Shown here piece by piece: positions 610 through 19,004 of a DNA stretch of 64,000 nucleotides. Under the pieces are notes generated by a model. It did not search any database. It was not told the origin of the DNA and saw nothing but the letters and a program-made list of their open reading frames with translations. This stretch comes from an uncultured Candidatus Rokubacteria bacterium (GTDB lineage Bacteria; Methylomirabilota; Methylomirabilia; Rokubacteriales; DASRDR01). The position numbers were made by a program, and so were the translations under genes. Each line of letters starts with the position of its first letter. Positions within the stretch are counted from its first letter, which is position 1. Location of the stretch: the NCBI GenBank assembly GCA_963826115.1, contig CAWGVS010000006.1:672001-736000 (forward strand). The letters run 5' to 3'.

Positions 610-2073
610 TTACCGTTCGAGCCCGTACTCGCGCCAGCGCTGGGCGACGCGCTGGCGGACCTCGTCCGACATGCGGATCTCGTCCGGCCACGGCTGCTCG
701 ACGCGGTCGAGGGGCGCCCGCTTCTCGGTCGCGTCGATGCCGAGCTTCCCGCCGTAGCGGTGGCGGAGCGCCGCGTGGTCGAGGTCGTCCGTCGGCCCCT
801 CCACGATCACGAGGTCGCGCGCGGGGTCGATGTTGTTGGTCACGCGCCAGGCGACCTCGGAGAGGTCGTGGACGTTGACGCCCTCGTCGACCACGATCAC
901 GTTCTTCGCCAGCATGAGGAGGCCGAGGCCCCAGAGCCCGTACATCACCTTGCGGACCTGCCCCGGGTAGCGCTTCTTGACCGAGACGATCACGAGGTTG
1001 TGGAAGACGCCCTCGGCCGGCATGTTCATGTCGACGATCTCCGGCACCATCATCCGGATGAGCGGCAGGAACATCCGCTCCGTCGCCTTGCCGAGCCAGT
1101 AGTCCTCCATCGGCGGCCGTCCGACGACGATCGTCGGGTAGATCGCGTCGCGCCGCCGCGTCACCGCGGTCAGGTGGAAGACGGGGTAGGGGTTCGCGAG
1201 CGAGTAGAAGCCCGTGTGGTCGCCGAACGGCCCCTCGACGCGCGACTCCGCCGGGTCGCAGTAGCCCTCCAGCACGATCTCCGCCTGCGCCGGCACCTCG
1301 AGGTCGATCGTCCGGCACTTCACCATCTCGACGCCCTTGCCCCGGATCCAGCCAGACAGCAGCATCTCGTCGAGCCCCGGCGGGAGCGGCGCCGTCCCGC
1401 TGTACATGGTCGCCGGGTCGGCGCCGAGGGCGATCGCCACCGGGATGCGCTCAAGCCCGGTGCGGCGCGCCTCGCGCTCGTGCTCGGCGCCGCCCTTGTG
1501 GGTCTGCCAGTGGAGGCCGAGCGTCCGCTCGTCGTAGACCTGGATCCGGTAGGTGCCGACGTTCCGGAGCCCGGTGACGGGGTCCCGCGTGATGACGAGC
1601 GGGAAGGTGATGTAGTGGCCCGCGTCCTTCGGCCAGCACCAGAGGATCGGGAGCGACGCGACCGACGGGCGGTCGGTCTCCACGACCTCCTGGCAGGGGC
1701 CGCTCTTCACGCTCCGCGGGCCCGCGCGCGCCACGTCGAGGAGCTCGAGCCCCTTCCTCATCTTGTCGAGGAGCGAGCCCGGCATCTTGAGCTCGAGGAG
1801 GCCCTTGATCTTCTCGCCGAGGTCGTCGAGCCGCTCGACGCCGAGGGCCCACGCCATCCGCTCCTCGGTCCCGAACGCGTTGATGAGGACCGGCATCGCC
1901 GCGCCCTCGACGTGCTCGAAGAGGAGCGCGAGGTTCTGCGCCTTCGGGCCCTTCACCGTGCGGTCCGCGATCTCCGTGATCTCGAGCTCGCGGCTGACGG
2001 GCGCGTCGATGCGCCGGAGCTGGCCCCGGTCCTCGAGGAGCTGGATGAACTCCCGGAGATCCAGAAAGCTCAC
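610..2073 (-). CDS. ubiD: UbiD-family prFMN-dependent decarboxylase (menaquinone biosynthesis decarboxylase-like)
   Basis: FLDLREFIQLLE start, EGPFGDHTGFY, GRPPMED and GGKLGIDAT motifs; GTG start at 2073 preferred over the ORF-track start. Confidence 0.92.
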   Translation of the reverse strand: MSFLDLREFIQLLEDRGQLRRIDAPVSRELEITEIADRTVKGPKAQNLALLFEHVEGAAMPVLINAFGTEERMAWALGVERLDDLGEKIKGLLELKMPGSLLDKMRKGLELLDVARAGPRSVKSGPCQEVVETDRPSVASLPILWCWPKDAGHYITFPLVITRDPVTGLRNVGTYRIQVYDERTLGLHWQTHKGGAEHEREARRTGLERIPVAIALGADPATMYSGTAPLPPGLDEMLLSGWIRGKGVEMVKCRTIDLEVPAQAEIVLEGYCDPAESRVEGPFGDHTGFYSLANPYPVFHLTAVTRRRDAIYPTIVVGRPPMEDYWLGKATERMFLPLIRMMVPEIVDMNMPAEGVFHNLVIVSVKKRYPGQVRKVMYGLWGLGLLMLAKNVIVVDEGVNVHDLSEVAWRVTNNIDPARDLVIVEGPTDDLDHAALRHRYGGKLGIDATEKRAPLDRVEQPWPDEIRMSDEVRQRVAQRWREYGLER

Positions 2074-2325
2074 GGTGTCACCGCTCCGCTGGTGGCGCTG
2101 AGTCCGCGCGCGGGGCGGCGCAGCCCAGTAGGTCGCCGCGGATCGAGCGCCGCAGACGCGAGACGCGCCGGCCGAGACGGACACGGCCCCCTTCGCCATC
2201 GGACCGCGACCGAGCAGGTCGCAGCCTGTGGCGAACGGGTGACGGAGCGAAGCCGCGCCGCGGGCCGGCCCGGAGACAGGACCGGCGGCATGGCAAACGT
2301 GGCGGTCGAAGCGGCGGCAGGCACG

Positions 2326-2817
2326 CTAGTCGTCGTAGATGAAGCGGACGAGGTAGCCCGCGATGATCGGGAACGCGAGGGTCGGGAGGACGCGCGCGAT
2401 GAGGAAGCGCGTCCCCATGAACGGCAGCTCCCACGCGAGGACCCGCTGGAACCCGAAGAGCGACCAGCTCGTCATGTACGCGACCAGCGCCGACAGGGAC
2501 GCCCCGCCCTTGTAGAACACCGCCATGATCGGGAAGCTCACGAGCGGCCCGCCCGGCGTCAGGATGCCCGCCACGAAGCCGGCGAAGATCGCGCGGTGCG
2601 TGTTGCCCCGGCCGAGCCAGTGCTGGATCAGGTCGGGCGAGATCATGACCTGGATCATCCCGGTCAGGACCAGCGCGGCGACCAGCCGGGGCATGATGTC
2701 GAGGAGGAGCTGGGCGCCGGCGCGGAGGCCGACCGCCGGCAGGCTCGGGTCGCGGAGGTACGCGGCGACCGTCACGGCGATCGCGAGGCCGTAGATGATG
2801 AAGTCGAACGTGTGCAT
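2326..2817 (-). CDS. Predicted permease (DUF318-like)
   Basis: Multi-TM protein with GILTPGGPLVSFP motif; start MHTFDF. Confidence 0.75.
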   Translation of the reverse strand: MHTFDFIIYGLAIAVTVAAYLRDPSLPAVGLRAGAQLLLDIMPRLVAALVLTGMIQVMISPDLIQHWLGRGNTHRAIFAGFVAGILTPGGPLVSFPIMAVFYKGGASLSALVAYMTSWSLFGFQRVLAWELPFMGTRFLIARVLPTLAFPIIAGYLVRFIYDD

Positions 2818-2916
2818 GCGGAGCCAGCTCCTCCGGGCAGGGGGATCCACGGAGCTCGCGGTGCGGGCGAGGGGGGCGCGCGCCAAAGCGCGGCCAGTAT
2901 AGCCTCGCCGCGACCC

Positions 2917-4104
2917 CTAGATAAAGGAGGAGTCGGGCTCGAGCCCGAGGAGGAAGCGCCCGACCGTCTCGAAGTGCGTCTGGCGGCCCTGGACCTGCTG
3001 GGCCACCGTGTGCGCGTCCCGGAAGCGCCGCTCGAAGGGGTTCGCGTCGAAGATCGCGGTCGCGCCGGCCGTGTGGTAGGCGAAGTCCACGGCCGCCGTC
3101 GCCTCGGTGATCGCGTGGGTCGCCGCCAGCCGGATCCGGACGCGCTGGTCGAGGCCGAGCGTCCCCGCCCCGACGACGTCCCGCCAGACCTCCTCCAGCG
3201 AGCCGAGGAGGAGCGCCCGCGCGGCGCCGACCCGCGCCTCGACCCGGGCGAGCTCCGACTGGACGACGGCGCTCTCGCGGAGCGGGTGGCGGAGGCCACG
3301 CGGCGTCTTCGTCCGGGCGAGCGCGACGAAGGCGTCGAGCGTCGTCCGCGCGTTCCCCAGGGCGACGCCGGCGAAGCCCGAGGCGTAGAGGCTCGTGGTG
3401 GGGAAGCAGTAGAGCGGGCCTCCGTGCCGGCGCTCGGCGGGGTCGTCCCGCGCCGCCGAGCGCTCGCGGGGCACGAAGAGGTCCGCGACCGTGAACGAGT
3501 CGCTGCCGGTCGCCCGGAGGCCGATCACGTGCCAGGTGTCGAGGATCGTCGCGCGGGCCGCCGGGAACAGCATCCAGCGCGTCTCGGCCGCGCCATCCGG
3601 CCGACGGCGCGGCGCCCCGTCGGGCTCGTGGATCGCGCACTGGCCGCCGAGCCAGGTCGCCTGGCGGCAGCCGCTCGCGAAGGTGAACGTGCCCGTCACG
3701 CGGTAGCCGCCGTCGACGGGCACCGCGCGGGCGTCCGGGCTCGGCCCCCAGGCAAGGACGGCCCGCCGGTCGCCGAAGACCTCGCGCGCGACCTCGGGCG
3801 CCACGTAGCCCGAGATCATGGTGCAGCCCGCCGCCTGGCAGAGGCACCAGGCCGTGCTGGCGTCCGCGCGGCTCACCTCCTCGATGACGCGCGCGAAGGC
3901 CGCGGGGTCGAGCTCGGCCCCGTCGAGGGCGCGGGGGAGGAGGAGGCGGTAGAGGCCCGCCTCGTGGAGCGCGGCGACCAGGGGCTCGGGGAGGCGCCGC
4001 TCCCGCTCGCCGTCGGCCGCGGCCGCGGCGATCAGCGGGGCGAGCGCGCGGGCGCGGGCGAGGGGGTCAGCGGGCTCGCCGCGGGCGGGGGCGGCATCGG
4101 CCAT
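2917..4104 (-). CDS. Acyl-CoA dehydrogenase-fold flavin-dependent monooxygenase (HsaA-like)
   Basis: ADASTAWC, FASG, WHVIGLRATGSD and FERRFRDAH motifs. Confidence 0.88.
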   Translation of the reverse strand: MADAAPARGEPADPLARARALAPLIAAAAADGERERRLPEPLVAALHEAGLYRLLLPRALDGAELDPAAFARVIEEVSRADASTAWCLCQAAGCTMISGYVAPEVAREVFGDRRAVLAWGPSPDARAVPVDGGYRVTGTFTFASGCRQATWLGGQCAIHEPDGAPRRRPDGAAETRWMLFPAARATILDTWHVIGLRATGSDSFTVADLFVPRERSAARDDPAERRHGGPLYCFPTTSLYASGFAGVALGNARTTLDAFVALARTKTPRGLRHPLRESAVVQSELARVEARVGAARALLLGSLEEVWRDVVGAGTLGLDQRVRIRLAATHAITEATAAVDFAYHTAGATAIFDANPFERRFRDAHTVAQQVQGRQTHFETVGRFLLGLEPDSSFI

Positions 4105-4203
4105 GGCGGGATGGTACCCCGGCCGGCCGGGGCGCGGGAGGCAGCCGGCCGCGCGCCGGCCGGCCGGCCCGGACCGTGGCCCGCCTCGACGCGCCGCGTT
4201 GCC

Positions 4204-4233
4204 TTGACGCCCGCCGGGGCCGGCCCGTAGAAT
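4204..4233 (+). promoter_or_regulatory. Sigma70-type promoter of the tRNA pair
   Basis: TTGACG (4204-4209), 18-nt spacer, TAGAAT (4228-4233), 10 nt before tRNA-Gln. Confidence 0.75.
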
Positions 4234-4243
4234 GGCCTCGCGC

Positions 4244-4317
4244 TGGGAGATCGTCTAGTGGTAGGACGCGTGGCTCTGGACCACGTAGCGGAGGTTCGAC
4301 TCCTCCTCTCCCAGCCA
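4244..4317 (+). tRNA. tRNA-Gln (anticodon CTG)
   Basis: Cloverleaf with acceptor TGGGAGA/TCTCCCA, anticodon arm CGTGG-CT CTG GA-CCACG, GGTTCGACTCC T-arm, encoded CCA. Confidence 0.96.
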
Positions 4318-4348
4318 TTTTCTTTGTCTGTTGCGGGTGGTGGGAGCC

Positions 4349-4426
4349 GGCTCCATCGTCTAGCCCGGTCTAGGACACGGCCCTCTCAAGGCTGAAACAC
4401 GGGTTCGAATCCCGTTGGAGCCACCA
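4349..4426 (+). tRNA. tRNA-Glu (anticodon CTC); island integration site
   Basis: Acceptor GGCTCCA/TGGAGCC, anticodon arm CGGCC-CT CTC AA-GGCTG, GGTTCGAATCC T-arm, encoded CCA. Confidence 0.96.
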
Positions 4427-4577
4427 CCGTTCTGACGCGGGTTTCCGCAGCATCAGCCCTTCCGCTCAGACTCTTGTTGCCACGGCTTGTTGCCATTCCG
4501 GCAGCTTCAACCACTCCAGCGAGGTTTGGATTCCCGTCCCGAAGCCTGGCGCGATATTAGGAGAGCGTGAGGCAAAG

Positions 4578-4603
4578 GACACCGGACAAACGGACAGTTC
4601 CGG
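4578..4603 (+). repeat. Sub-terminal inverted repeat, left copy (partner at 14538-14563)
   Basis: GACACCGGACAAACGGACAGTTCCGG; its reverse complement matches 14538-14563 at 23/26 positions. Confidence 0.65.
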
Positions 4604-5036
4604 CTGCCAGGCCCCAGGCGGTGGGTCAATGGCGACGCAGCCGAGTGACCGGCGGATGAGGTTGAGGCAGCAGAACTGGCCAATTGCCCGAGCACGTCCG
4701 GCCGCACTCAGAACGCTCCGCTCCTTCACCCGTGCGGCAGTTCGAGCCGATGAAAGACCAGGGTAGAAGTCGCAGGGTGCAATCGGATCCGATGCATCAA
4801 CACAACCGACTTGCAGCCGGACGGCGCCGAGCAGGGTGATTAGAAGGTGGCCCTGGATCATCGCAATAGCAGGAAACAGTCGCCACGGGACTCCCGTATG
4901 TCTTCTGTTGAGGACACAGTCAGTTATGAACCGAGCCGGTACCCCGGGGCGACCGGCTTCGGCTTCTATCCCTACCTCCGCCTCGTACACAGCGTTTCCG
5001 ATGTAGCGTGATCGGGGCCTGACCCTGATCACGACG

Positions 5037-5465
5037 GTGGCGGGGAACGGGATCGGCAGGACGGACCCTAGCTACCAGGATGAAGAAGTCGAGATCGCAC
5101 GTGTGTCGCTCCAGTCCACGACTGGGGACGTCATCAGCATTCGCGCGCGTCGAGAAGGAGGCGTCATTCGATATCGCGTTGTGGACGAGTACGGCACCAA
5201 GATAGTCTGCTCGCCGACGGAGAGCACGGAACCGCTATCACTCAGAGAATTGATCGGCCTGATGGACACAGCCCAGTATGATAACTCCCCGGAGTTCGTT
5301 GGACTCACGAACGCCTTTCGCGACTACGACGCTGGGTCTGATCCGGAGGAACTCCTGGCGTTCGTATCGGTATCGTCGGAGTTCTATTCAGAGCTTGAAT
5401 CCTACTACGATGACGACGGGCAACGTTGGCTCGAGGAGAGGCGGAGGTCCGAGACAAGCGGGTGA
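5037..5465 (+). CDS. Acidic hypothetical protein, possibly 5'-truncated
   Basis: Globular-looking sequence (EVEIARVSLQSTTGDVISIRAR...); stop overlaps the next start (GTGA). Confidence 0.6.
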   Translation: MAGNGIGRTDPSYQDEEVEIARVSLQSTTGDVISIRARREGGVIRYRVVDEYGTKIVCSPTESTEPLSLRELIGLMDTAQYDNSPEFVGLTNAFRDYDAGSDPEELLAFVSVSSEFYSELESYYDDDGQRWLEERRRSETSG

Positions 5466-5995
5466 GTGAGCCGGATCTGGTTCCCGCGCAGGAGCCCACG
5501 AAGCGCCCCCAACGCAAGGCCTTGAGTAAGCGCCTCCAGGTCGAGGTCTACCGACGCGACCGCTCGCTGTGCAGGTGGTGCGGGCGGTCCGTGATATTCG
5601 CTCCGGCCATGAAGTACCTCGAGCGGTACGCGCGGAGCCGCGGCTATACGGGTCCGCTCGCCTGGTTGTCGTTTGCTTGGCGTCGGGATGCATCACCGTT
5701 GCTGGATCACCTCGGGGCGGTCATCGATCATGTGAAGGCGTTTTCGACAGGAGGCGCGCACGAGGCGAGCAACTTCGCGACGGCCTGCGCAAAATGCAGC
5801 ATGCGAAAGAGTGCGGGCGCCGCGAAGGAGCCGCTCAGGAAGGTCAAAGCGAAATATGGAGAGCCTGAGCACTGGGACGGGTTCTCGGTGCTGTTCGTTT
5901 TGATGGTACGAGGCGATAAGAGCGGCGTCACACGGTCAGAAATGGAGTGGTACGAAGCGTTCAGTGGTGAGCGTGATGTACCTAGAACTAAGTGA
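5462..5995 (+). CDS. HNH endonuclease family protein
   Basis: VYRRD..CRWCG, IDHVKAFSTGG..N..TACAKCS; the usual second Asn is Ser. The TGA stop lies inside cassette site 1. Confidence 0.8.
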   Translation: MSEPDLVPAQEPTKRPQRKALSKRLQVEVYRRDRSLCRWCGRSVIFAPAMKYLERYARSRGYTGPLAWLSFAWRRDASPLLDHLGAVIDHVKAFSTGGAHEASNFATACAKCSMRKSAGAAKEPLRKVKAKYGEPEHWDGFSVLFVLMVRGDKSGVTRSEMEWYEAFSGERDVPRTK

Positions 5996-6005
5996 TCCCG
6001 GAAGT
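5977..6005 (+). repeat. Cassette-boundary site 1 (11-7-11 imperfect palindrome)
   Basis: TGTACCTAGAA-CTAAGTG-ATCCCGGAAGT. Confidence 0.85.
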
Positions 6006-6046
6006 AGGCATTCGCCGCCGGTGGGGCGGTAGCTGGAGAGAATGGC

Positions 6047-6856
6047 ATGAGAAACAATCAGACGCTCGACCTTAGCGGCTCACCGGCCGAGATCTATGAA
6101 CGGTACCTTGTCCCGCGCTTCTTCCTGCCGTGGGCACGGGATCTCATTGAGGCGGTTGCCCCGAAACCGGGTGAGCACGCCCTGGATGTCGCCTGCGGCA
6201 CCGGCGCCGTGACCCGGTTGGTTGCAGAGCGTGTCGCGCCTGGAGGCAGCGTTGTCGGCCTCGATGTCAACGCTGGCATGATTGCAGTGGCGCGATTGTC
6301 GGTGGCCAGTCCTAAGGTGGAGTGGCGAGAGGCGAACGTCCTCGAGCTCCCCTTTGGCGACAGCGCCTTCGACATCGTCGTCTGTCAGCAAGGACTCCAA
6401 TTCTTCCCGGATCGACCACTAGCGCTTTGGCAGATGAGACGGGTCCTAGGGCCACGCGGGCGTTTGGGCCTATCTTGTTGGCGTACCTCTGCCGAAAGTC
6501 CGGCCTATGCGGCCATCGAGCGAGCCCTTGCGCGCCGCCTCGGAGAGGAAAAGAGCAGCTTGCCGCCATTTGCGCTAAGCGACCTTCGGCACCTGGAGAA
6601 GCTAGTCGAGGGCGCTGGCTTTCGGGAAATCAAGGTGCAGAGCAAGACGAAGATGGTCGAGTGGCCGTCAGTGAATGTCTTCGTCCGGGCGACTGCGGCC
6701 TCCGCTCCGACGATGCTGGGTTCTCTCGCTGAGCAGGGTGACGCGATGCTGTCCGAGATTGTGGCCGAAGTGGAGGCGGATACTGAACGGTTCCGCAGCG
6801 CAGATGGTGAAATCAGGTTTCCGATGGCCAGTAATCTGCTCACTGCGCGCGCCTAA
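6047..6856 (+). CDS. Class I SAM-dependent methyltransferase (UbiE-like)
   Basis: LDVACGTG motif I, LPFGDSAFDIVVCQQGLQFFPD; GGAG RBS. Confidence 0.92.
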   Translation: MRNNQTLDLSGSPAEIYERYLVPRFFLPWARDLIEAVAPKPGEHALDVACGTGAVTRLVAERVAPGGSVVGLDVNAGMIAVARLSVASPKVEWREANVLELPFGDSAFDIVVCQQGLQFFPDRPLALWQMRRVLGPRGRLGLSCWRTSAESPAYAAIERALARRLGEEKSSLPPFALSDLRHLEKLVEGAGFREIKVQSKTKMVEWPSVNVFVRATAASAPTMLGSLAEQGDAMLSEIVAEVEADTERFRSADGEIRFPMASNLLTARA

Positions 6857-6885
6857 TCTGGCAGTTAGGCAACGTGTGTCGTAAA

Positions 6886-6914
6886 TGTTCCTAGAACCAA
6901 GTGATCTAAGGAGT
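6886..6914 (+). repeat. Cassette-boundary site 2
   Basis: TGTTCCTAGAA-CCAAGTG-ATCTAAGGAGT. Confidence 0.88.
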
Positions 6915-6959
6915 GGAGCCGTGGGCCGCGCGTTGGCGTGGCCCGTAGGGAGGATTCCG

Positions 6960-7385
6960 ATGCTCCGTGGATTGAGTTCGATAGTCTGCCTCGTGGTTTT
7001 GGGCCTCCTCGCTCTGGCTGGTACCCGCGTGCTCGCTCAGTCAAGCACGGCTGGCTCGCCGGTCGGAGCGGACCAGATCGAGGCCATTCTGACCCAGCAA
7101 CCATCTTGGACGGTCTATTGGTCAAGCGCTGGAGCGGCACCGAGACCGCCCGCATCGGCAGCGGCGGATACGATCCAATTCCGTCGAGATGGCAACCAGT
7201 TCATGGGACACCTGAAAACCGTTTTCGGGCAAGAGTGTGACTTCGCGGTGACGGTCAAGGAGAATGGTTTCATCTATCCCGGCTGCGCACGATATGACAA
7301 AGAACTGATCTATGATCCGTCGGATAGCGAATATCCGTTCAAGGGGACGGCCAGATCATATGGGTTCTGGCTTCGGCGACAATGA
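6960..7385 (+). CDS. Secreted hypothetical protein
   Basis: GGAGGA RBS; signal peptide MLRGLSSIVCLVVLGLLALAGTRVLA; small beta-rich mature domain with two Cys. Confidence 0.75.
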   Translation: MLRGLSSIVCLVVLGLLALAGTRVLAQSSTAGSPVGADQIEAILTQQPSWTVYWSSAGAAPRPPASAAADTIQFRRDGNQFMGHLKTVFGQECDFAVTVKENGFIYPGCARYDKELIYDPSDSEYPFKGTARSYGFWLRRQ

Positions 7386-7416
7386 ATGGGGCGACGAGGC
7401 TGTCTTGTTGTCGCAA

Positions 7417-7445
7417 CATTCCTAGAATCAAGTGATCCAAGGATG
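7417..7445 (+). repeat. Cassette-boundary site 3
   Basis: CATTCCTAGAA-TCAAGTG-ATCCAAGGATG. Confidence 0.88.
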
Positions 7446-7447
7446 GC

Positions 7448-7681
7448 ATGGCTGGACAGGTAACTCGGCGCCAGATGGAAACGTGGCTACTGGGCAATGG
7501 GTTCCGCCGTCTCAAGGGAGGAATGAGCGGACATGTTCAGTACGAGAGGCAGGGTGTGAAGATAACCTTGCCCGGGCATGGGCCGCAGGACCTGACAAAG
7601 AAGCATGTGGCGCTCATTATTCGGGCGCTTAATGGGGCAGGATTTGACCGGGAGCAGGTGCGCCGCGAACTCGGTGGATGA
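7448..7681 (+). CDS. HicA-family toxin-like protein (no adjacent hicB)
   Basis: 77 aa; L..NGF.R..G.SGHVQY...KITLPGHG..DL pattern typical of HicA. Confidence 0.75.
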   Translation: MAGQVTRRQMETWLLGNGFRRLKGGMSGHVQYERQGVKITLPGHGPQDLTKKHVALIIRALNGAGFDREQVRRELGG

Positions 7682-7685
7682 GTAA

Positions 7686-7714
7686 TGTTCTTAGAAGCAA
7701 GTGATCCAGGAATC
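7686..7714 (+). repeat. Cassette-boundary site 4
   Basis: TGTTCTTAGAA-GCAAGTG-ATCCAGGAATC. Confidence 0.88.
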
Positions 7715-7732
7715 GTTTTGAAGGAGTAGGCC

Positions 7733-7969
7733 ATGGCACGCGTGCGTTGTGTGGCGTGCGCGCTGGAAACTCGCCGGTACGTTAACCATGTGCTGCCGGT
7801 AGGGTACCCTGACAGCGGGGTAATCTGTGGCGTGCCTTCGTGTCGGCTGCCCGGTCTCATCTGGTTGGAAGCAAAGGAGGCCCGAGCCTATGATCGGGCG
7901 AGCGGATCTTTCTGCTGCGCTCGAAGACGATCCAGGTCAGGGCTCAATGATGCGCTGGCAAAGTTCTGA
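7733..7969 (+). CDS. Small Cys-containing hypothetical protein, probable frameshift near 7897
   Basis: AAGGAG RBS; CVAC...PVGYPDSGVICGVPSC; a more protein-like tail ERIFLLRSKTIQVRAQ* continues in another frame to about 7950. Confidence 0.55.
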   Translation: MARVRCVACALETRRYVNHVLPVGYPDSGVICGVPSCRLPGLIWLEAKEARAYDRASGSFCCARRRSRSGLNDALAKF

Positions 7970-8067
7970 AGGCGTGCTGGCGGTCAGATAGGCTCTCGAC
8001 AGAAGATGCCATAGGCGTCAGAGGCGACGCCTATTTGCTTCGCACACAGGACTGCAGGGAGGCGGAT

Positions 8068-8421
8068 GTGGCCAAGTTCGAGACGGTTCCGATCGGAGAA
8101 CTCAAGCACCGGCTTCCGGCGAAGCTCCTGCCGCTGGTGGAGGAGTATCGGTAGAAGATGGAGAAACTTACGGCGGAGCAAGGCGGGCGCCTCACCCTCG
8201 AGAAAGGCGATGACGCGAAGGAGCTCCGGCGCGCCCTGAAGGCGGCCGCTGCAGCTGTGAACCGGCGCGTGCGGTTCCCCTTCCGGGGCGAGGAGGGGTC
8301 GCTGAGCTTTTATCTGGAGGGCCAGCGAGGACGACGAAGAGGGCGGCGGCCGAAGGGGGCGGGCGGTGCTGGCGAGGCGCCCAAGCGGAAGCGTGGACGG
8401 CCGAAGAAGGCGACCAGCTAG
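8068..8421 (+). pseudogene. Small basic hypothetical protein with an in-frame TAG at 8152-8154
   Basis: GGGAGG RBS, GTG 8068: MAKFETVPIGELKHRLPAKLLPLVEEYR*KMEKL..., in frame with ORF 8158..8421; RGRP-type basic tail. Confidence 0.6.
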
Positions 8422-8547
8422 AGGCTACGAGCTCCATGTATATATGTAAGAGTCCGTCGTGTGGGACGGGACGGGCCCTTGGACACCTCCACCGGCTTGA
8501 GGGTAGGTTCGCGCGACGGCTAACCGGTCAGTTGAGGAGGGCCACCC

Positions 8548-8712
8548 ATGCCCCGCTATGAATTCCTCTGCGAGAAATGCCAGAAGACCTTCGAGCAGAC
8601 CATGACCATCTCGGAACACGAGAAGGGGAAGGTCCGGTGCCCGACGTGCAAGAGCACGAGAGTCGTGCCGCAGCTCAGCGGCTTCATGGGGCAGACGAAG
8701 AAGAAGAGCTGA
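8548..8712 (+). CDS. FmdB-family zinc-ribbon protein (54 aa, missed by the ORF track)
   Basis: GAGGAGG RBS; MPRYEFLCEKCQKTFE...VRCPTCKSTRV...QTKKKS*. Confidence 0.9.
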   Translation: MPRYEFLCEKCQKTFEQTMTISEHEKGKVRCPTCKSTRVVPQLSGFMGQTKKKS

Positions 8713-8726
8713 CAGTTGTGCCAGGA

Positions 8727-8755
8727 AGTCCCTAAAAGCGGGCGATCCAGGAAGT
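8727..8755 (+). repeat. Cassette-boundary site 5
   Basis: AGTCCCTAAAA-GCGGGCG-ATCCAGGAAGT, 14 nt after the FmdB-like stop. Confidence 0.72.
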
Positions 8756-8848
8756 GAAGGAGGCGTCCTGGGTGTGAGCCGAGAACTACCCTTCGGAGAT
8801 TGACGTCACCCCACTCCGGGCGTAGCATCCCGCCACCCGGAGGTGACC

Positions 8849-9838
8849 ATGAAGCGACCGGGCCGCGTGTTCCTCCTTTCGCTGACGCTGGCCGTCGCCC
8901 TCCTCGCCGCGTCGCTCGCCGCCGAGGCACAGCTGGCGGGGGGAATCCCTCGAGTTGGCTTGCTCTCATTCGCCGACGGGTTGCCTCCGCGCATTGAGGC
9001 TGCACTCTTGGACGGGCTCCGCGAGGATGGGTGGGTCGAGGGAAAGAGCATCACGGTCGAGCGCCGATACGCCGGTGGCCGGGCCGACCGGCTTCCCGAG
9101 CTGGCGACGGAACTCGTGGGCTTGAAGGTGGACGTCATCATCGCCTCTGGCGCGTCCGCCGTACGCGCCGCCAAGATCGCCACGAGTACCATTCCAATCG
9201 TCTTCGCCGGGGCCGCTGATCCCGTAGGATTCGGGTTGGTGGTGAGCCTGGCACATCCCGGCGGCAATGTGACGGGCGTGTCCGATTCGACCGGCCGTGA
9301 GATCGAAGGGAAGCGCCTCCAGCTGCTGAAGGAGGCCGTGCCGGCGGCCACTCGCGTGGGGGTCGTGCTGGACTCCACCAGCCGGACCGATCCGGCCCCG
9401 ATGCGCGAGGCCGCGCGGGCGTTAGGATTGGCGTTGCTGGTCTCGCCGGAAGCGTCCACACCCGAGGAGTTCCGGGACGTCTTCGCGTGGTTCTCCCGGG
9501 AGCGGACTGGCGTGTTGTATGCGCCTGAGACACCGGTGAATGCTCGGCATCGCAGTTTGATCGTCAAGCTGGCGGGCCAGCATCGCCTTCCAGCAATGTA
9601 CGCATCCCGGGAATTCGTCGAGGCGGGCGGCCTGATGGCATACGGCCCGAGCCATGCCAAGGTGTTTCGACAGGCCGCCGGCTACGTGACGAGGATCTTA
9701 AGGGGCGCTCGGCCGAGCGACCTGCCGGTCGAGCAGCCGACTGAGTTCGAGCTGGTGGTGAATGCAAGGACGGCGAAGGCCCTGGGGCTGGTCCTGCCCC
9801 CGGCAATCCTCACTCGGGCCGACCACGTGATCCAGTGA
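8849..9838 (+). CDS. ABC transporter substrate-binding protein (ABC_sub_bind family)
   Basis: Signal peptide; DPVGFGLVVSLAHPGGNVTG, GGLMAYGP, LPVEQPTEFELVVN motifs. Confidence 0.92.
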   Translation: MKRPGRVFLLSLTLAVALLAASLAAEAQLAGGIPRVGLLSFADGLPPRIEAALLDGLREDGWVEGKSITVERRYAGGRADRLPELATELVGLKVDVIIASGASAVRAAKIATSTIPIVFAGAADPVGFGLVVSLAHPGGNVTGVSDSTGREIEGKRLQLLKEAVPAATRVGVVLDSTSRTDPAPMREAARALGLALLVSPEASTPEEFRDVFAWFSRERTGVLYAPETPVNARHRSLIVKLAGQHRLPAMYASREFVEAGGLMAYGPSHAKVFRQAAGYVTRILRGARPSDLPVEQPTEFELVVNARTAKALGLVLPPAILTRADHVIQ

Positions 9839-9859
9839 GAGGAAGGGAGGGCGACACGC

Positions 9860-10360
9860 ATGCCATTCGGGAGATTCCTTGTCATCGTCTTCTTCACCGG
9901 CCTCTGCCTCCTCGTCCCACTCGTCAGCATGGCCCAAGAGGCGGTCTTCATCATTCGGCATACGGAGCAGGTGGTCGATGGAGAGGATCCACCGCTCACG
10001 GACATCGGCCATCAGCGCGCTGCACGGCTGCCCAGCGTCCTCAAAGACGCAGGCATCCGCGTCATTTACACCAGCGAGTCTCTGCGGACGATTCAGACCG
10101 CGCAACCACTGGCGAAGGTGTTGGCGATCGACAGCCGGATCGTGCCGCGACGTGAGATCGAGGCACTGGTGAGGCGGCTTGCCGTCGAGCACACCCAGGA
10201 TCGTGTGCTCATCGTCAGCCATTCGCAGACCATCCCGGTGTTGCTCAAAGCGCTGGGACACACCGCAGAGGTTCCGATCGGCCGGGACGAGTATGATAGT
10301 GTGTTTCTGGTCTTTCCGCGACAGGGAATGCCGCCGGTGGTCGTCCGATTTCACTTCTAG
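9860..10360 (+). CDS. Exported histidine phosphatase (SixA/PGM superfamily)
   Basis: Signal peptide; FIIRHTE, LT..G..RA, SESLRTIQTA and VSH motifs. Confidence 0.85.
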   Translation: MPFGRFLVIVFFTGLCLLVPLVSMAQEAVFIIRHTEQVVDGEDPPLTDIGHQRAARLPSVLKDAGIRVIYTSESLRTIQTAQPLAKVLAIDSRIVPRREIEALVRRLAVEHTQDRVLIVSHSQTIPVLLKALGHTAEVPIGRDEYDSVFLVFPRQGMPPVVVRFHF

Positions 10361-10593
10361 CGGGTCCGAAGACAAAACCGGCCGTGACGATTCCGCCCTC
10401 GATGCGGGCGCGAGCGGAATCAATGATCCGGGTAGATCACGTCATCGGCTGGCCGCAGTCACGGGAGCAGACCACGACCCAGGCTTCCCGCAGCATCAAG
10501 ATCAAGCAGGCCACCGCTACGCCGGACAACCAAGAAGGCACTCCTTCACTAAACTCATGACCCCGCTGTCTCATTCTTGTTGACAGGTTCCGC

Positions 10594-10622
10594 GGTGCCT
10601 AGAAGAGAGCGATCCAGGGACA
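10594..10622 (+). repeat. Cassette-boundary site 6
   Basis: GGTGCCTAGAA-GAGAGCG-ATCCAGGGACA. Confidence 0.72.
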
Positions 10623-10776
10623 AAGCTGCTTCCCGGGAAACACGCTGGCGCTGTTCGAGCTGAAGCGGCGGGGGCAATGAGCCCTTCGCCGAGATGTCCG
10701 CAAGAGCTATCTTCGGGCATCGTCATGGTTGGTGTGAGGTCATTTACCGAAGCGGCTGTGGTGGAAGGAGCCGATC

Positions 10777-11607
10777 ATGAGCACCACGACCACGACGTTC
10801 GTCGCGACGGACCCGAGTGCCTACGAGCAGTTCATGGGGCGATGGAGCCAGCGGCTCGCGCCGTCATTCGTTGGGTTCGTCGGCGTTCAAACAGGTGAGG
10901 AGGTTCTTGATGTCGGGTGCGGTACGGGAAACCTGACCCTTGCTTTGGCTCAGGTGCAAGTGAAGTCGGCGGTTGGCATCGACCCATCGAGCCCCTACAT
11001 CGATTTCGCGCGGAGCCGTACCTCCGATCCGATGGTCCGCTTCGACGTAGGTGATGGGACCGCGCTCCCATACGGGAGGGGGGCCTTCGATCGGGGCCTC
11101 TCAATGCTGGTGCTCGACGTCGTCCCAGACCCTGCTCCGATGGTGGCCGAGATGTGCCGGGTCACGCACCCGGGCGGCACTGTAGCCGGGCTTGTCAACG
11201 ACTTCCGGTGCGGGCACCCAGTCTTCACCATGTTGTGGGACACCGCGGCCGTGCTAGAGCCGGGCTTCGCCGACCTCCGTGACCATCTAACGTCGAAGCG
11301 GATCGGGTGGCCCGGGGGCTTAGCCGAGCTGTGGCACGCAGCGGGACTGACTGACATCCACGAGGGACGGCTGACTATGCCGTTCGACTTCGGTTCGTTC
11401 GCCGATTATTGGTCGACGTTCACGACGGGACAGGGCAAGACCGGGGGGCATCTCATGAGCCTGCCGGAGCCGAAGCGGCGAGAGATCGAACAGTGCGTGC
11501 GGGCGGCGTACCTCTGCGGGCAACCCGACGGCCCACGGGCGTTCCTGATGACGTTCTGGGTGGTCCGAGGAGTTGTCCGGGAGAACCCTTCCCAAATGAG
11601 CGGGTAA
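10777..11607 (+). CDS. Class I SAM-dependent methyltransferase
   Basis: AYEQFMGRWS, VLDVGCGTG motif I; AAGGAG RBS. Confidence 0.92.
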   Translation: MSTTTTTFVATDPSAYEQFMGRWSQRLAPSFVGFVGVQTGEEVLDVGCGTGNLTLALAQVQVKSAVGIDPSSPYIDFARSRTSDPMVRFDVGDGTALPYGRGAFDRGLSMLVLDVVPDPAPMVAEMCRVTHPGGTVAGLVNDFRCGHPVFTMLWDTAAVLEPGFADLRDHLTSKRIGWPGGLAELWHAAGLTDIHEGRLTMPFDFGSFADYWSTFTTGQGKTGGHLMSLPEPKRREIEQCVRAAYLCGQPDGPRAFLMTFWVVRGVVRENPSQMSG

Positions 11608-11694
11608 AGGAGCTTGTGACTTCCTCGGGTGTCGAGCAACGCTCATGCGTTGAGGGAGATGAGAACACAACCCTCCAGGGGGTGCCTTCCCAGG

Positions 11695-11723
11695 AGTTCC
11701 TGGATCAGACCGATCCAGAACGT
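11695..11723 (+). repeat. Cassette-boundary site 7 (more symmetric, orientation uncertain)
   Basis: AGTTCCTGGAT-CAGACCG-ATCCAGAACGT. Confidence 0.6.
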
Positions 11724-11907
11724 CGTCGAATCTAACCGCGGTGCCCACACGAAGGCGATTCGGGCAATCCCGGACGCTCTATTCAGCTCGAGTACGGATA
11801 GAAGTGCATCGTAGATATCCACGGGCGAGATTGCAATGAGACACGCCAAGGGCTTAGGGTCCCCAAGGTCGGCTCGACGGAGTGAGTGGCCGTAGGGAAG
11901 GCGACCT

Positions 11908-12862
11908 CTAGGCGTGAAGTCTCACGAGATTGTCCGCACTCGACCGCGACAGGCGGCTGATGGGCGGACGGCCGTGCAGACCGGCATGGTCCCGTTCCAC
12001 ATTGTAGTAGTGCAGCCAGTGGGGCAAGGCCCCGAGGCGCTCGGCCGAGGTCCGGTACGGCCGGATGTAGGCCCACTGGCGCAGCAGGGTCTGGATGAAG
12101 CGCTCGGCCTTGCCGTTCGTCCGGGGCGTGTAGGGGCGTGTCCGGAGATGCCGGATCCGGGCGCTGTGGCAGCACTGGGCGAAGACGTGCGACAGATACC
12201 CCGCGCCGTTATCCGTCAGGAGGCGGCGGACCCGGATGCCCAGGCGGCGGTACCAGGCCAGCGCCCGCCAGAGAAACGCGGTCACGGTCACGCCCTGCTC
12301 ATCGGGCAAGACCTCGACATAGGCGAGCCGCGTCGCGTCATCGACGGCCACGTGGACGTACTCCCAGCCGATGCCGCGGACCCGGGCGCGCCGGTCCCCG
12401 GTGATGCGGTGCCCGATGCGGCCGATCCGCCCGAGTTTCTTGATGTCCAGGTGCACCAGGCCGCCGGGCTCGGTGTACTCGTAGCGCACGACCGGCACGC
12501 GGGGCTCAAGGGCCCGCAGCCGGGCCAGCCGCAGCCGCGTGAGGTACCGGGCGACCGTGGCGGGGCTGAGCTGCAAGGCGCGGGCGATCTGAGCGCCGGT
12601 CCAGCGCTGGCGCCGCAGGCGTTCGATCCACCGCGACGAGCTCGGGGGCGACGGCGGCCGGGGCCCGGCGCGGCCGACAGGAGCGATCCTGCAAGCCGGC
12701 CCGGCCGGCGAGGCGGTATCGCTGGACCCACTTGCGGACGGTGCGGTCGCTGATCCCCAGGGCATCGGCCACGTCGCGAATCGACTCGGCCCCGTGCAGG
12801 ACTCGCTGGACGAGACGCTCTCGACTGCGCGGGGTGGTCCGGGCATGCTGGTGGATGTTCAT
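11908..12862 (-). pseudogene. IS481 transposase, one frameshift near 12630 (real or read error)
   Basis: MNIHQHARTTP N-terminus; HLDIKKLG, TDNG and TNGKAERF DDE motifs; stop codon supplied by the target CTAG. Confidence 0.88.
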
Positions 12863-13075: not shown

Positions 13076-13966
13076 TCAGGGCGGGCGCACGGCAGCCAGG
13101 GCGATCCTCCAGCAGGCGAGCACGAGCGCGCCGGCGGCGAGGGCCAGGAGCCACTGACTCGACCGGCCGAGTGGTTGGCGCTGTGCCAGTGCCGGGCCAA
13201 TGCCCAGGAGGCCTCCAACGAGGAGGCCAAAGACGTGGGCGAGTACATCTGACCCCGGCGCGGTCCCGAGCATACCGAGCAGCGCGAGGCTGGCGGCCAT
13301 TACCACCCAGCCCTTGTGCACCGACGCCCGGTCCCGCCCGCGCGCTACGTACTGGCGAGCGGCCAGAATGCCGAGGGCGCCGAAGATGGCGGTCGAGGCG
13401 CCGACTGAGACGGACGACGGCCCATGCGCGAGCGCCGTCAGCGCGTTTCCCCCCGCCCCGGCCAGTAGCACGAGCCATGTGCCCACGCCTGGCCCGAGCC
13501 ACCAGGCCACCGCGGTGACGAACACCAGGCAGGCGAGGGCGTTGCTGAGCACGTGGGCGAGGTCGGCATGGAGTGTCAGGGCGGTCACTGTGCGCCATAC
13601 CTCACCGGACAGAATCGGCTGGGCAGCAGCACTGCCTCGGTCGAACCAGAGGTTGGATCCACGTGGGCCGGTGACCGCAAAGAACCCAACCAGCAGCACG
13701 GCGATCACCCCCCCGATCCAGGTGGTGCCGTAGGGGGGCGGGGAGGGATCACTCGGCGCCTCGTCGCGGTTCTCCCGGTCATACTCGGCCAGCGCGCTGC
13801 TCGCCCGTTCAGCATCACCCGCCGCGACCATCACCATCCAGCCGGCGTCAGTCGGCTCCAGGCGGTGAGCAATCCCATTCGACGCCAACACGACCGCGCA
13901 CTCCTCCGCCCGCTTCGCACTCGGGGTCACACACACGGCGGCCTCACTCGGTTTATCGGTCGTCAT
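13076..13966 (-). CDS. Rhomboid-family intramembrane serine protease
   Basis: WRTVTALTLHADLAHVLSN, GASTA catalytic Ser, AHVFG catalytic His. Confidence 0.9.
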   Translation of the reverse strand: MTTDKPSEAAVCVTPSAKRAEECAVVLASNGIAHRLEPTDAGWMVMVAAGDAERASSALAEYDRENRDEAPSDPSPPPYGTTWIGGVIAVLLVGFFAVTGPRGSNLWFDRGSAAAQPILSGEVWRTVTALTLHADLAHVLSNALACLVFVTAVAWWLGPGVGTWLVLLAGAGGNALTALAHGPSSVSVGASTAIFGALGILAARQYVARGRDRASVHKGWVVMAASLALLGMLGTAPGSDVLAHVFGLLVGGLLGIGPALAQRQPLGRSSQWLLALAAGALVLACWRIALAAVRPP

Positions 13967-14537
13967 TGATGCAGCCTGAGCTGGACGATGATGGGGTGGT
14001 TCGGCACGATCGGCCATCGCTTAGCCCTGATCCGAAAGTAACTCACGCAGTTAGCACATGGCCACGCGCCCGGAGAGGGTCTGGGTCGCAGAGATCTCGG
14101 TCGGTCTGCCCGGGAGCCACAGCGACACCGCGCCAAAACCATAGCGCGGCGCCGTCTGAGCGGACAAGGGCGTCGGGAGATCGAAGGGATGCCCCGAACC
14201 TGCCCTGCAGGGGCCGGGGAACGGAGGGGGACCGCGGCACCTGGGCGTGCTCGAGTGCCGGTCAGGCGGCCGAGACCGGTCGCCCCGGCGGCGGGTCGGC
14301 GGCAAAATCGAGCGCGTGAGGAGCCGGCGTACGGTGTGACTCGACATTTACGAGCGGTGCTGGCCGGCGGCCCCACCAGCAGCGTTGTGGCCCTATGTCA
14401 GCCGTCCGAGCGACCGGGGGCCTGTGGAGCCAGCGCTGCGCGGCTCGGACGACTGGCCTCTTCGGCAGCCTGAATCTCGTCTGCGGATCCCCGGGCTACC
14501 TCCTCATCGACCCGCCGGCCTGGCGCGGTTCTGGCGC

Positions 14538-14637: not shown

Positions 14638-14664
14638 GTTCGAATCCCGTTGGAGCCACCACCG
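14638..14664 (+). repeat. att-like copy of the tRNA-Glu 3' end
   Basis: Exact 27-bp match to 4403-4429. Confidence 0.92.
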
Positions 14665-14781: not shown

Positions 14782-17700
14782 CTATGGTCCAGCGGCGGCT
14801 CGGGTCGGTACACCCAACACGCTACGCCACCGCTCGGGTACCGGGCTCTTCAACTTCCAGTGGACGGTGATCGGGCGATCGCCGCTCCAACGAAGGAACT
14901 CGCACTCGCCGCAGTAGAAAAACGGGGCCGCGCGCCCGTCGACTTTCGATGCTTTTCGTACGAAGAGGTGAACGGGGATGCCCCGTTCAACGTGGCGGGC
15001 CAGCTTCTGCTCGGTCGCTCCTCCACGGTGCTGCTTGTTCTGACTCTGCCATTGAAAGCGATCGGGAGCTTCGAAACGATCCTCGTAGCGATGCGCTTTC
15101 GCCTTATCGGATTTGTCGAGCGTGACGAGGAGGATGACTCGGTCATTCTTGAAGATGAACCCCTGGTTCCAGACGGGAGCGTTGTAGACGAGGCCGAAGA
15201 GTGGGGGAATCGCCTCACGTGAATACTGTCGCCACGTCTCAGGTCCCTGGTCCGGAGAGGTCTGCCGACGCAGCGGCACAAGTTGGTACACGTTATCGGC
15301 CGTGGGTTCAAAGGAAACCTGAAAGCTGGTGCCCGGAAGCCCGGCGTCGGGCCCGAACCAGGCCCGGAGAAGGCCAGGTAGCTCGTTCCGTGGGGAGCCG
15401 GGGGCCCGAACTACGTTCACCGCAATCTTGGCGAACTCGGCATGATATTGCCGGCCGTCGATCAGTACTGGGATGTTCCCCATTGGGATGTCGGGCCGCC
15501 CGGAGCGATCAGGGAGAAAGAGGATCGGCCGACTCCCGGCATGGCTGACCTTGCAGATTATGCTCGCCTCGGTCCCCGGCTGCCGCTGCAGGTACTCAGC
15601 AAGGCGCCAGTCCACAAGCTCACGCACAAGTTCCTGGAAGGCCTCTCGGTGAGGCGCCGGAACATCGAAACGACTCCCGAAATGGCCCTCCTGGTAGGCG
15701 AAGTATGGGACGCCGTGTGTACCCGCCCCGCCGGACCAGGCGGCGATCGGATTGATCTCGAGGTGACGGGTCAAGGCGGCAGGATCGGTGAGCGCCGGGC
15801 CGAAGTCCTGCTGAAGCCGTGCAGACCGTCGCGCGAGCTGAGTGACCGTCTGGGCCAGATCGCCAATCGGGACTGTTCCCGGGAGACGATCCTCGTTTAG
15901 CATCGCAAGCAGGACGATCATCTTGTAGCTCTTGGTCATTGGAGTCGTTTCGAGCTCGTCAAGGAACGCTTGGATCGAGGGAGCGCCGACGTGGCCCGTG
16001 ATGGCCCCCTTGACCAGAGTGACCTGGGCCTCGGGGAGGTTACCCATCTGATCCACGAACCGAAGCCACGAGCCGTACGAGCGCCGGACCGTCCGGGGTG
16101 CGTAACCCTCGTGGAACGCTTCGACGGCGCGGGGCCGGATCCCATGACGCTCGCGAAAGTCCTCATACCAGGCTCGGAGGACGTCGGGCGTCTGCATCGG
16201 CAGGAGCGCTCGGAGGATTTCTATCGCGCGAAGCTCATAGGTGACCTCGCAGCCGGGTGGCAGCTCGAGCGAGTGGGCCTCGGCACGGGTCAAGGCTTCG
16301 GCCACCGTGGCCGGCGAGGCGTCGAGCCCCAAGAGCACCTGGGGCTTGAGCAGAAAGATGCGATGATTTCCGATGTAGTCGATGACTGTGAGATGGTCCT
16401 TATGCGCGGCCCTGCGAAGACCTCGACCGAACTGCTGCATCCAGACGATCCGTGACTCCGTGGGACGGAGCATCATGATCGTGTCCACATGGGGAAGGTC
16501 CACACCCTCGTTGAACATGTCCACCGCGAAGATCGCGTCGAGTTCACCCGCCTCCAATCGCTCCAGAGAGGCGGTCCGGGGCGCGCTGGTCGCATCCGAA
16601 TGCACCGCGACGGCTCGAATGCCGGCATTCGTGAAGAAGTCCGTCATGAAGTCGGCATGACGCGTAGAGCTGCAGAAGGCCAAGGTGCGCGACCCAGCGC
16701 GCAGCCGATACTGGTCCAAGGCATTCTGGGCCCTTGACTGAGTTGCCACCGCCTGGGTTAACGCCACCTCGTCGAAACGCGCGCTACGCCAAGGGATGTT
16801 CCGGTAGTCGACCTCGTCAGGGATGCCGAAGTAGTGGAAGGGTGCCAGGAGTCCCCGCCTGATGCCATCCCAGAGGTCACACCGATAGACGAGGTTCTCG
16901 CCGCACAGACCCAGTAGGTCGCCCCCATCCGTTCGTTCCGGCGTTGCGGTCAAGCCGAGGAGAAACCTGGGCTGGAAATGATCGATAAGGCGGCGGTATG
17001 TCGCGGCCGCGGCGTGGTGGAACTCGTCGACAATGATGTAGTCGAAGGCGTCCGGGGGAAACTGGCCCAGGTGACGGACCCGGCCGAGCGTCTGGATGGA
17101 TGCGAACAGCACATCGGCTTCCGGAACCCTCTCATCGCCAGTGTAGAGGCCGAGCGAGGCGGTCGGGCGAATGCGCCGAAATGTCGACAGAGCCTGGGCA
17201 AGGATCTCCTCTCGGTGGGCGACGAAGAGCACTCGGTGATACTCGGGGCGATCGGTATCGAAGGCGGCTAGCCAAGTTTTCCCCAGCCCGGTTGCCAGGA
17301 CGACGAGCCCAGCGGCATTGCCATCGACTCGAGTCCGTTCAAGGGCTGTCAGTGCTTCTCGCTGGACCGCATGCGGCTCGGGCGGGGGTGGCAGAGGCTC
17401 CGGGACCACGTCTACGATTCGTCTCAACTCGGGAGACCGTCGGGCGCTGTACTGGGCGATCCACGCTGCGTCTAGAGGCGTCGTCTTGGGATGCTGGAAG
17501 AGCATTCGGAACGCCGCGACGACCGTGCCGAAGCCGGCCCGGTCACGAGCCGGGACGACACGGTAGTTCCACTCGATCCCGCGCCCGAGCGCGAGCTCGG
17601 AGAGATTGGAGCTACCGACGAAAGCGACGGCGTCGCCGTTGGACCCATGAACGATATAGGCCTTTGGATGGAAACTCTGGCCGGCCGTCACGAACACCCG

Positions 17701-18971: not shown

Positions 18972-19004
18972 ACTGTGGACGCTAGCACACGACGGCCCGT
19001 CAGC

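Follow-up and report, generated by a model that had tools for sequence, protein, structure and literature searches.

What holds a run of functionally unrelated genes together on one strand, each parted from the next by a copy of the same short palindrome? This question is raised by an island of low guanine-plus-cytosine (GC) content in a 64,000-nucleotide stretch (here called the window) of the genome of an uncultured Candidatus Rokubacteria bacterium (NCBI GenBank assembly GCA_963826115.1, contig CAWGVS010000006.1, positions 672,001 to 736,000 of the forward strand), in which seven 29-bp sites, spanning positions 5977 to 11723 of the window, delimit six gene units. An initial annotation had read the region as an integron-like gene-capture array using a different recombinase site, with the recombinase encoded elsewhere. 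Comparison with related genomes supported the proposal of a capture array, and, judging from sequence comparisons, we consider it likely that these genes are mobile cassettes strung together in an array, with simple double-stranded core sites of the Xer type served by an Xer-like recombinase, and that the array in this genome is an orphan.

All seven copies of the motif were confirmed at the starts first reported, all on the plus strand (Table 1), while a single earlier mention of "eight sites" did not hold, seven being found. The sites are direct repeats with the layout of an 11-7-11 imperfect palindrome, in which two inverted arms of ∼11 bp (GTTCCTAGAA / ATCCAGGAAC) flank a 7-bp asymmetric spacer. 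Allowing up to three mismatches, the consensus proposed initially matched four of the seven sites, against an expectation of 0.00 from 100 shuffles. With a weight matrix built from the seven sites, a scan of both strands of the whole genome returned 10 places at ≥18 bits, namely the seven sites (31.5 to 44.6 bits) and three weak others (18.9 to 19.5 bits); with a matrix built from 50 sites, the seven scored 28.8 to 45.9 bits, with nothing else in the genome above 16.3 bits. By both matrices, the seven are the sole such sites in this 6.24-Mb genome of 72% GC, in agreement with the earlier remark that the motif was not noticed outside the islands, and they lie within a stretch of 55 to 67% GC (about 4200 to 12000). 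Column counts over the 50 sites gave the consensus (A)-GT(T/C)CCT(A/G)GA(A/T), a 7-nt centre, and GATC(C/T)AGG(G/A)A, with conservation in the arms at positions 2 to 11 and 19 to 27, a fixed asymmetry at positions 8 and 22, and no conservation beyond 29 to 33 bp. The arm asymmetry itself is conserved, the left arm having TAGA and the right TCCA. Centres fall into the types xxAAGTG, GCGGGCG, GAGAGCG, CAGACCG, CACGGTG, and CTTACTG. The arm had initially been likened to that of Bacillus subtilis dif; among listed papers on Bacillus Xer, none contained the 7-base arm motif.

A short imperfect palindrome in intergenic DNA could also have spread from gene to gene as a selfish repeat, akin to repetitive extragenic palindromic (REP) sequences or miniature elements, or as an element working at the RNA level, such as a processing or terminator hairpin. 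As single strands, six of the seven sites gave free energies of 0 to -2.1 kcal/mol with z scores of at least -0.01, no better than shuffles, and site 7 alone folded (-7.2 kcal/mol), so that the sites are neither attC-like hairpins nor RNA stem-loops, which supports the earlier statement that the long attC hairpin is lacking. Moreover, no Rfam match was found at the sites, promoter-like and terminator-like patterns were not enriched and none coincided with the sites, no T-run terminator was present, and the Y1 (REP-associated) transposase, PF01797, had no match in the genome. Considering in addition that there are only seven copies, in a single island, and that the arms keep their asymmetry instead of showing compensating changes, we regard this as the least probable of the three rival explanations weighed here and give it very little credence.

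As first described, all seven sites occupy gene boundaries, either between open reading frames or touching their ends. The distance from a site to the next start codon ranges from 3 to about 95 nt (the ATG of hicA, at 7448, lies 3 nt past site 3), and the upstream stop codon is often abutted. The centre of site 1 (AAGTGA) provides the stop codon (TGA at 5993 to 5995) of the HNH endonuclease-like frame that precedes the array, indicating that a site can supply the stop to an upstream gene. The units measure 909, 531, 269, 1041, 1867, and 1101 bp, as given initially, each with one to three co-oriented genes, and the six cassette genes of the window that have Pfam support all share the strand of the sites. 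Among the first gene labels, Pfam bore out methyltransferase, HicA-like, FmdB, ABC (ATP-binding cassette) substrate-binding, histidine phosphatase, and the second methyltransferase, whereas "secreted protein" was reduced to a hydrophobic N terminus. Across arrays, the cargo is functionally unrelated, including methyltransferases, HicA, FmdB, ABC binding proteins, a phosphatase, DUF169, cupin, and MGS-like proteins. The commonest array unit by far is an FmdB zinc-ribbon gene followed ∼14 bp on by a site, which occurs in the window (8548 to 8755) and at 13 other nonredundant loci (for example, L017, L021, and L043), with a trailing site that is usually of the GCGGGCG type; within this genome, the window has the only close copy of the unit.

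The sites are largely a property of one lineage. Exact-pattern matches numbered 11 among 185,579 species genomes, seven of them named Candidatus Rokubacteria or Methylomirabilota; the other four are labeled uncultured bacterium, Myxococcaceae, Myxococcales, and Chthoniobacterales, and three of these four carry good sites, by transfer or mis-binning. With up to three mismatches allowed, the pattern was found in 16 of 61 relatives and the reversed control pattern in none. A covariance model of the 50 sites, trained partly on genomes of the same family (G005, G012, G016, and G018 contributed none), detected sites in 14 of the 21 genomes of Rokubacteria family f1 at an E value of ≤0.05; at ≤0.001 in a sample of the phylum, sites were found in 6 of 10 genomes of f1, in 5 of 94 of family f2 (one site each), and in 0 of 46 from nine other families. 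The expectation that the sites would cluster was borne out, since they form co-oriented arrays in relatives, with a spacing within loci of 0.17 to 3.1 kb (43 intervals) and successive sites mostly in the same orientation, G019 being the clear exception. In G014, sites were present on five contigs and clusters on four. Many lone sites lie close to contig ends, as would be expected if arrays break assemblies. Among viral contigs, a single weak site match (23 bits) was found, the CAGACC-type pattern had no match, and relatives of the candidate recombinase described below reached at most 33% identity. In metagenomes, 26 short contigs carried sites, and none of these 26 carried a recombinase gene.

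Comparison between arrays revealed that the same cassettes recur in other orders and neighborhoods with breakpoints inside the sites, as the initial annotation had anticipated for a capture system. Cassettes 2 and 3 of the window (6884 to 7708) form a block 99.6% identical to one in the congeneric genome G013, with unrelated DNA on both sides, while conserved flanking DNA of the two genomes is only 81 to 83% identical; the G013 copy sits by a tRNA-Pro locus, and the tRNA-Pro locus of the present genome, on contig C12, has no sites. The hicA cassette recurs in G019 with a site on either side (86% nucleotide identity), and a copy in G010 (83%) has a site just before it. In addition, the methyltransferase of cassette 1 is 77% identical to a cassette of G014 (L011), the match beginning inside the site, and in a Logan contig from the public metagenome run X4, the match to the window starts at 6887, preceded by 390 letters with no place on the stretch. 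Elsewhere, a 565-bp cassette is 97.3% identical between G014 and G019, which belong to different genera, with both ends 6 to 8 bp from site centres, and a 906-bp DUF169 cassette is 95% identical between two loci of G008; in these two cleanest cases, all four ends fall 6 to 13 bp from site centres. More generally, 90 of 942 match ends (240 BLAST matches between nonredundant loci) lay ≤30 bp from a site centre, whereas 500 randomizations gave 10.7 on average and never more than 22. These findings suggest that the cassettes move as units, and the two outcomes that would have spoken for a different reading did not occur: the motif is not spread throughout the genome, and genes do not keep the same order across the sites. 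The G014-shared cassette in G019 (L035, contig C13, 13062 to 13641) is inverted within an otherwise plus-oriented array, and near-palindromic site types may allow a cassette to enter either way.

The same data bear on a second rival, namely, that the motif is the operator of a dimeric regulator or the site of an architectural protein and that mosaicism arose through homologous recombination ending in the sole conserved stretch. A double-stranded inverted repeat near gene starts, with a right arm that sometimes overlaps the ribosome-binding site, would suit an operator, and so would the prominence of FmdB, a "putative regulatory" zinc ribbon, as the commonest array gene. However, the distances to start codons vary, upstream stops are often abutted, and the arrays have no regulator in common. 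The sites occur only in low-GC arrays gained by horizontal transfer, and shared blocks of 97 to 99.6% identity stop a few bases from a 29-bp site, a stretch whose shortness and divergence would not permit RecA-dependent exchange to be efficient. Hence, an operator appears improbable, and among the rivals it ranks between the selfish repeat and the use of the sites by host XerC/XerD, which is taken up below.

The position of the presumed crossover can be approached through the 565-bp cassette shared by G014 and G019, whose neighbors differ on both sides and whose site centres differ. At the 3' end of the cassette, the two genomes agree across the left arm and as far as two bases into the centre, and no further; at the 5' end, the left arm differs and the centre and right arm are shared. 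In this pair, then, the left arm goes with the upstream cassette and the spacer and right arm go with the downstream one, which points to exchange where the left arm meets the centre and implies recombination of sites with unlike centres. Such a junction would fit one pair of strand exchanges, with replication or repair finishing the process. Integron recombination proceeds in this manner. Phage integration at dif is described as tolerating heterologous central regions by way of one pair of strand exchanges (PMC5357621).

Which enzyme might act on these sites? No integron integrase was found in the genome: the 10 matches to TIGR02249 were all below the 265-bit cutoff (best, 77.6 bits), and the tyrosine recombinase domain PF00589 had no match on the contig of the window. 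The best candidate is an Xer-like gene inside an array of G008 (L014:7470-8687), which scored best with XerA and XerC models, below their cutoffs, and whose nearest solved relative is XerD. The catalytic residues of the XerD motifs are Arg, Lys, His, Arg, His, and Tyr, and the motifs all align in the candidate. Its family was found in 3 of 251 genomes of the phylum: G008 has three copies, of which a single one is intact, G149 has one copy, and G134 has one copy and, on a second contig, a 25-residue trace; G149 and G134 belong to family f2, in which sites are rare. At five of the six loci with a recombinase gene or fragment, a site of ≥19.8 bits lay within 1.3 kb, the best chance score in the present genome being 16.3 bits. 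In both G149 and G134, a site with the same centre (CTTACTG) and the same right arm stands just upstream of the recombinase gene, and two of the G008 copies keep only a remnant of the right arm of that site, so the recombinase gene itself looks like a cassette. Relatives of the candidate are abundant in metagenomes, with more than 120 clusters of 56 to 91% identity and 281 to 332 amino acids (aa), mostly on short contigs. The expected linkage of the sites to one tyrosine recombinase family was thus found, on the basis of three genomes, and the suggestion that the recombinase is encoded elsewhere fits as well, the family being missing from the present genome. This Xer-like family is the best candidate, and a likely one, for the enzyme of the arrays. 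Two other genes were considered and rejected: a 461-aa integrase next to the array on contig C12 of G014, which abuts a tRNA-Arg beyond the tRNA-Pro and belongs to another island, and a third Xer-like gene of the present genome, on contig C1, which is sporadic (3 of 121 phylum genomes and 0 of 8 other family genomes).

Alternatively, the host dimer resolvases XerC and XerD might use the sites, as they do those of Acinetobacter dif modules and of integrative elements that exploit Xer, in which case no dedicated recombinase would be needed and the array could still be active. An XerC-like protein and an XerD-like protein are encoded in this genome (L054 and L056, by NCBIfam), an ortholog of the former was found in 18 of 21 family genomes, and a recombinase belonging to the array itself is missing in most cases. 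As summarized in PMC5357621, dif, cer, and phage attP sites share the layout seen here, a short centre between two stretches of 11 bp. Several findings nevertheless argue the other way. There is no other such site in the genome to serve as the chromosomal dif, and the two arms are alike rather than one of XerC type and one of XerD type. Moreover, G002 and G020 (97% complete) have both Xer genes and no sites, and a dedicated Xer-like paralog stands beside sites at the five loci mentioned above. Cumulative GC skew rises monotonically across the contig of the window (C6), so the array is away from any skew switch and not at the terminus. A fuzzy search of the genome with a dif consensus (≤8 mismatches) returned nothing, and a loose pattern for AT-rich palindromes gave one unconvincing place (C12:615681). 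On contig C5, cumulative skew peaks near 935 to 940 kb, with the XerC-like gene at 943 kb, and the interval of about 935 to 944 kb may be the replication terminus; no dif-like site was recognized near this maximum in a palindrome scan. Overall, use of the sites by host XerC/XerD is the foremost of the rivals, but we judge it unlikely.

Several observations weigh against an array of mobile cassettes served by a dedicated enzyme. Most arrays have no recombinase nearby, the closest protein in the present genome to the candidate is the XerC-like ortholog at 37% identity, and a 66-residue recombinase fragment on contig C99 of G008 has no site within 7.8 kb on one side, the contig ending ∼100 bp away on the other. 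The conserved FmdB unit starts at the start codon of the gene rather than at a site. A crude orientation test based on GC content at third codon positions (GC3) placed genes on the same strand as the sites in 25 of 43 intervals, on the opposite strand in 11, and left 7 undecided, although it misjudged known genes, and such strand calls were rejected as unreliable for low-GC cassettes. Clean one-cassette insertions or deletions between arrays were sought and none was found, nor was an excised circle or an empty site seen in read data that consist of short contigs unable to show either; short Logan contigs from four soil and plant metagenome runs contained no joints at sites, which is uninformative on excision. 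Homologous recombination within the short conserved sites could also contribute to the observed breakpoints. As for the crossover, spacers differ between neighboring sites of one array, which classical two-step exchange would not tolerate. Among pairs sharing only the upstream cassette, 8 of 11 have the same centres, and among the four pairs sharing only the downstream cassette, two have the same centre and two differ at one base; such pairs do not locate the crossover and may just as well reflect a preference for like centres. The crossover point therefore rests mainly on the G014/G019 pair.

Even so, mobile cassettes remain the reading that we prefer, and a non-integron cassette system is probable on the comparative evidence. 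Mechanistically, two recombinase monomers would bind the arms of a site, cut at the edges of the spacer, and swap strands between two sites; a cassette would leave as a circle with one site and could enter any other site, and arrays would in this way grow by accretion. Considering that the candidate recombinase is absent from this genome, the array in the window is most likely an orphan that preserves captures made in the past, in the manner of attC clusters that have no integrase. We give roughly even weight to a broader picture, in which gene capture in Rokubacteria is distinct from integrons and works with circular cassettes, 29-bp double-stranded sites, and a dedicated Xer-derived recombinase that travels as a cassette, with autonomous and non-autonomous cassettes accreting at several chromosomal loci and single genes passed between genera.

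The surroundings of the array are those of an integrated island. The low-GC stretch begins directly after tRNA-Gln and tRNA-Glu genes, and the three copies of a repeat of the tRNA-Glu 3' end (Table 1) indicate two islands integrated in tandem, with the array in the first. Neither island retains an integrase. A fourth identical copy of the 24-nt repeat is on the minus strand of contig C1 (C1:76010), and that contig starts with the sporadic Xer-like integrase gene. The three frames between the tRNA genes and the array did not recur in other arrays. A CAGACC-type site as the fixed end of arrays, akin to attI, was rejected, as cassettes run past such a site in L011 and L006. An insertion sequence (IS) transposase of host-like GC content directly past the last site may have cut off the array end. 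An IS256-like transposase recurs beside FmdB cassettes or near arrays in several genomes (L039, at about 9.1 to 10.4 kb, L017, L013, and L040), and together these suggest that insertion sequences accumulate in arrays. Beside the array, a rhomboid gene (13076 to 14017, minus strand) is 94% identical to an array neighbor in G014 and 77% identical to one in G003, where the flanks are unrelated to those in the window and the gene ends carry no sites. The second island contains a 1283-aa protein (14782 to 19013, minus strand) with HIT, PLD-like, ResIII/helicase, and DUF3427 domains, which adjoins an SprT-like protease, and the pair resembles defence genes. Just upstream of the tRNA genes, a 1256-aa open frame (460 to 4230) has no Pfam match and lies in DNA of up to 81% GC.

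Table 1. Features of the cassette array and its flanks (window coordinates; SAM, S-adenosylmethionine)
Feature	Position	Strand	Basis or remark
tRNA-Gln and tRNA-Glu	4244-4317 and 4349-4426	+	Left border of island; ARAGORN, Rfam tRNA
24-nt direct repeat (tRNA-Glu 3' end)	4406-4429, 14641-14664, 19265-19288	+ (first copy)	
Low-GC stretch before array	4466-5995	mixed	
Two frames without known family	4466-5032 and 5037-5465	- and +	
HNH endonuclease-like frame	5426-5995	+	Stop inside site 1
Site 1	5977-6005	+	Spacer CTAAGTG
Cassette 1: class I SAM methyltransferase	6047-6856	+	Pfam
Cassette 2: protein without known family	6885-7385	+	Hydrophobic N terminus; likely start 6961
Site 2	6886-6914	+	Spacer CCAAGTG
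Site 3	7417-7445	+	Spacer TCAAGTG; right arm AAGGA at expected hicA ribosome-binding site position
Cassette 3: HicA-like toxin	7448-7681	+	Below Pfam cutoff
Site 4	7686-7714	+	Spacer GCAAGTG; 99.6% block shared with G013 stops at 7708, within right arm
Cassette 4: two small frames without family; FmdB-family zinc ribbon	7733-7969, 8158-8421; 8548-8712	+	
Site 5	8727-8755	+	Spacer GCGGGCG
Cassette 5: ABC substrate-binding protein; histidine phosphatase	8843-9838; 9860-10360	+	Pfam
Site 6	10594-10622	+	Spacer GAGAGCG
Cassette 6: second SAM methyltransferase	10777-11607	+	Pfam
Site 7	11695-11723	+	Spacer CAGACCG; most palindromic of the seven
IS transposase (rve integrase core)	11908-12846	-	Directly past last site; host-like GC

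How does this array compare with known systems? In literature seen at the abstract level, no published account of such arrays, or of such mobile elements in Rokubacteria, was found. To our knowledge, no system other than integrons has been well described in which site-specific recombination stockpiles single promoterless genes in arrays. Like integrons, including sedentary chromosomal ones and clusters of attC sites lacking integron-integrases (CALIN), the arrays described here consist of co-oriented cassettes of 0.3 to 3 kb with unrelated cargo that includes toxin-antitoxin-type genes; in both, a site bounds each cassette, the same cassettes occur in different arrays and hosts, and many arrays have no integrase. 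The one informative junction, with its suggested crossover at the edge of the central region, would also resemble the single strand exchange of integrons. However, attC sites are longer than 29 bp and are recombined as folded single strands, whereas the array sites are 29 bp long and do not fold. Moreover, neither an IntI-type integrase nor a fixed platform of integrase and attI is present here, the candidate recombinase sits inside arrays like a cassette, several arrays occur per genome, and the range is one Rokubacteria family.

The dif modules of Acinetobacter are, as far as we know, the only other case in which single-gene modules are shuffled at short recombinase sites. Both systems have short dif-like sites with 11-bp arms and small accessory modules that shuffle between replicons, toxin-antitoxin modules are common in both, and Xer-type recombinases are implied in both. 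In the modules, as outlined in PMC13141974, a pdif site consists of a XerC arm and a different XerD arm on either side of a 6-bp spacer, neighboring sites are inverted, C and D modules alternate, and the carriers are mainly Rep_3 plasmids. In contrast, the spacer here is 7 bp, the arms are inverted copies of one sequence, the seven sites are direct repeats, the arrays of relatives are mostly co-oriented, and no dif-like partner of the array sites was found in this genome. Integrative mobile elements exploiting Xer (IMEX, such as the VGJ phage) and the single-recombinase modules XerS/difSL, XerH/difH, and XerA share with the present arrays dif-like sites of 28 to 31 bp and tandem accretion. In XerS/difSL, the recombinase gene adjoins its own site, according to the summary in PMC5357621. 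Yet IMEX insert at the one dif of the chromosome, which lies at the terminus, and the Xer modules serve chromosome-dimer resolution, whereas the array sites lie off the skew switch, at several loci per genome, and separate cargo genes. REP elements and their associated tyrosine transposases (RAYT) differ as well, given the seven copies confined to one island and the lack of any PF01797 match. In form, the array sites fit a tyrosine-recombinase core site of the dif/lox/FRT type, with inverted arms of 10 to 13 bp and an asymmetric centre of 6 to 8 bp.

Taken together, the array is set apart from integrons by its lack of an integrase and attC sites and from dif modules by its arms, its lack of the 6-bp spacer, and its lack of alternation, and it shares the working logic of both. 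If the proposed reading is true, it would represent a third solution and cassette capture would have evolved more than once from Xer-type recombinases; it would also provide a handle on gene flow in Rokubacteria and, in the compact pair of a 29-bp site and a recombinase, a possible genetic tool. Compared with its two nearest counterparts, such a system would be distinguished by simple double-stranded sites in direct orientation, chromosomal arrays, a cassette-like recombinase, and its occurrence in an uncultured soil phylum with large genomes.

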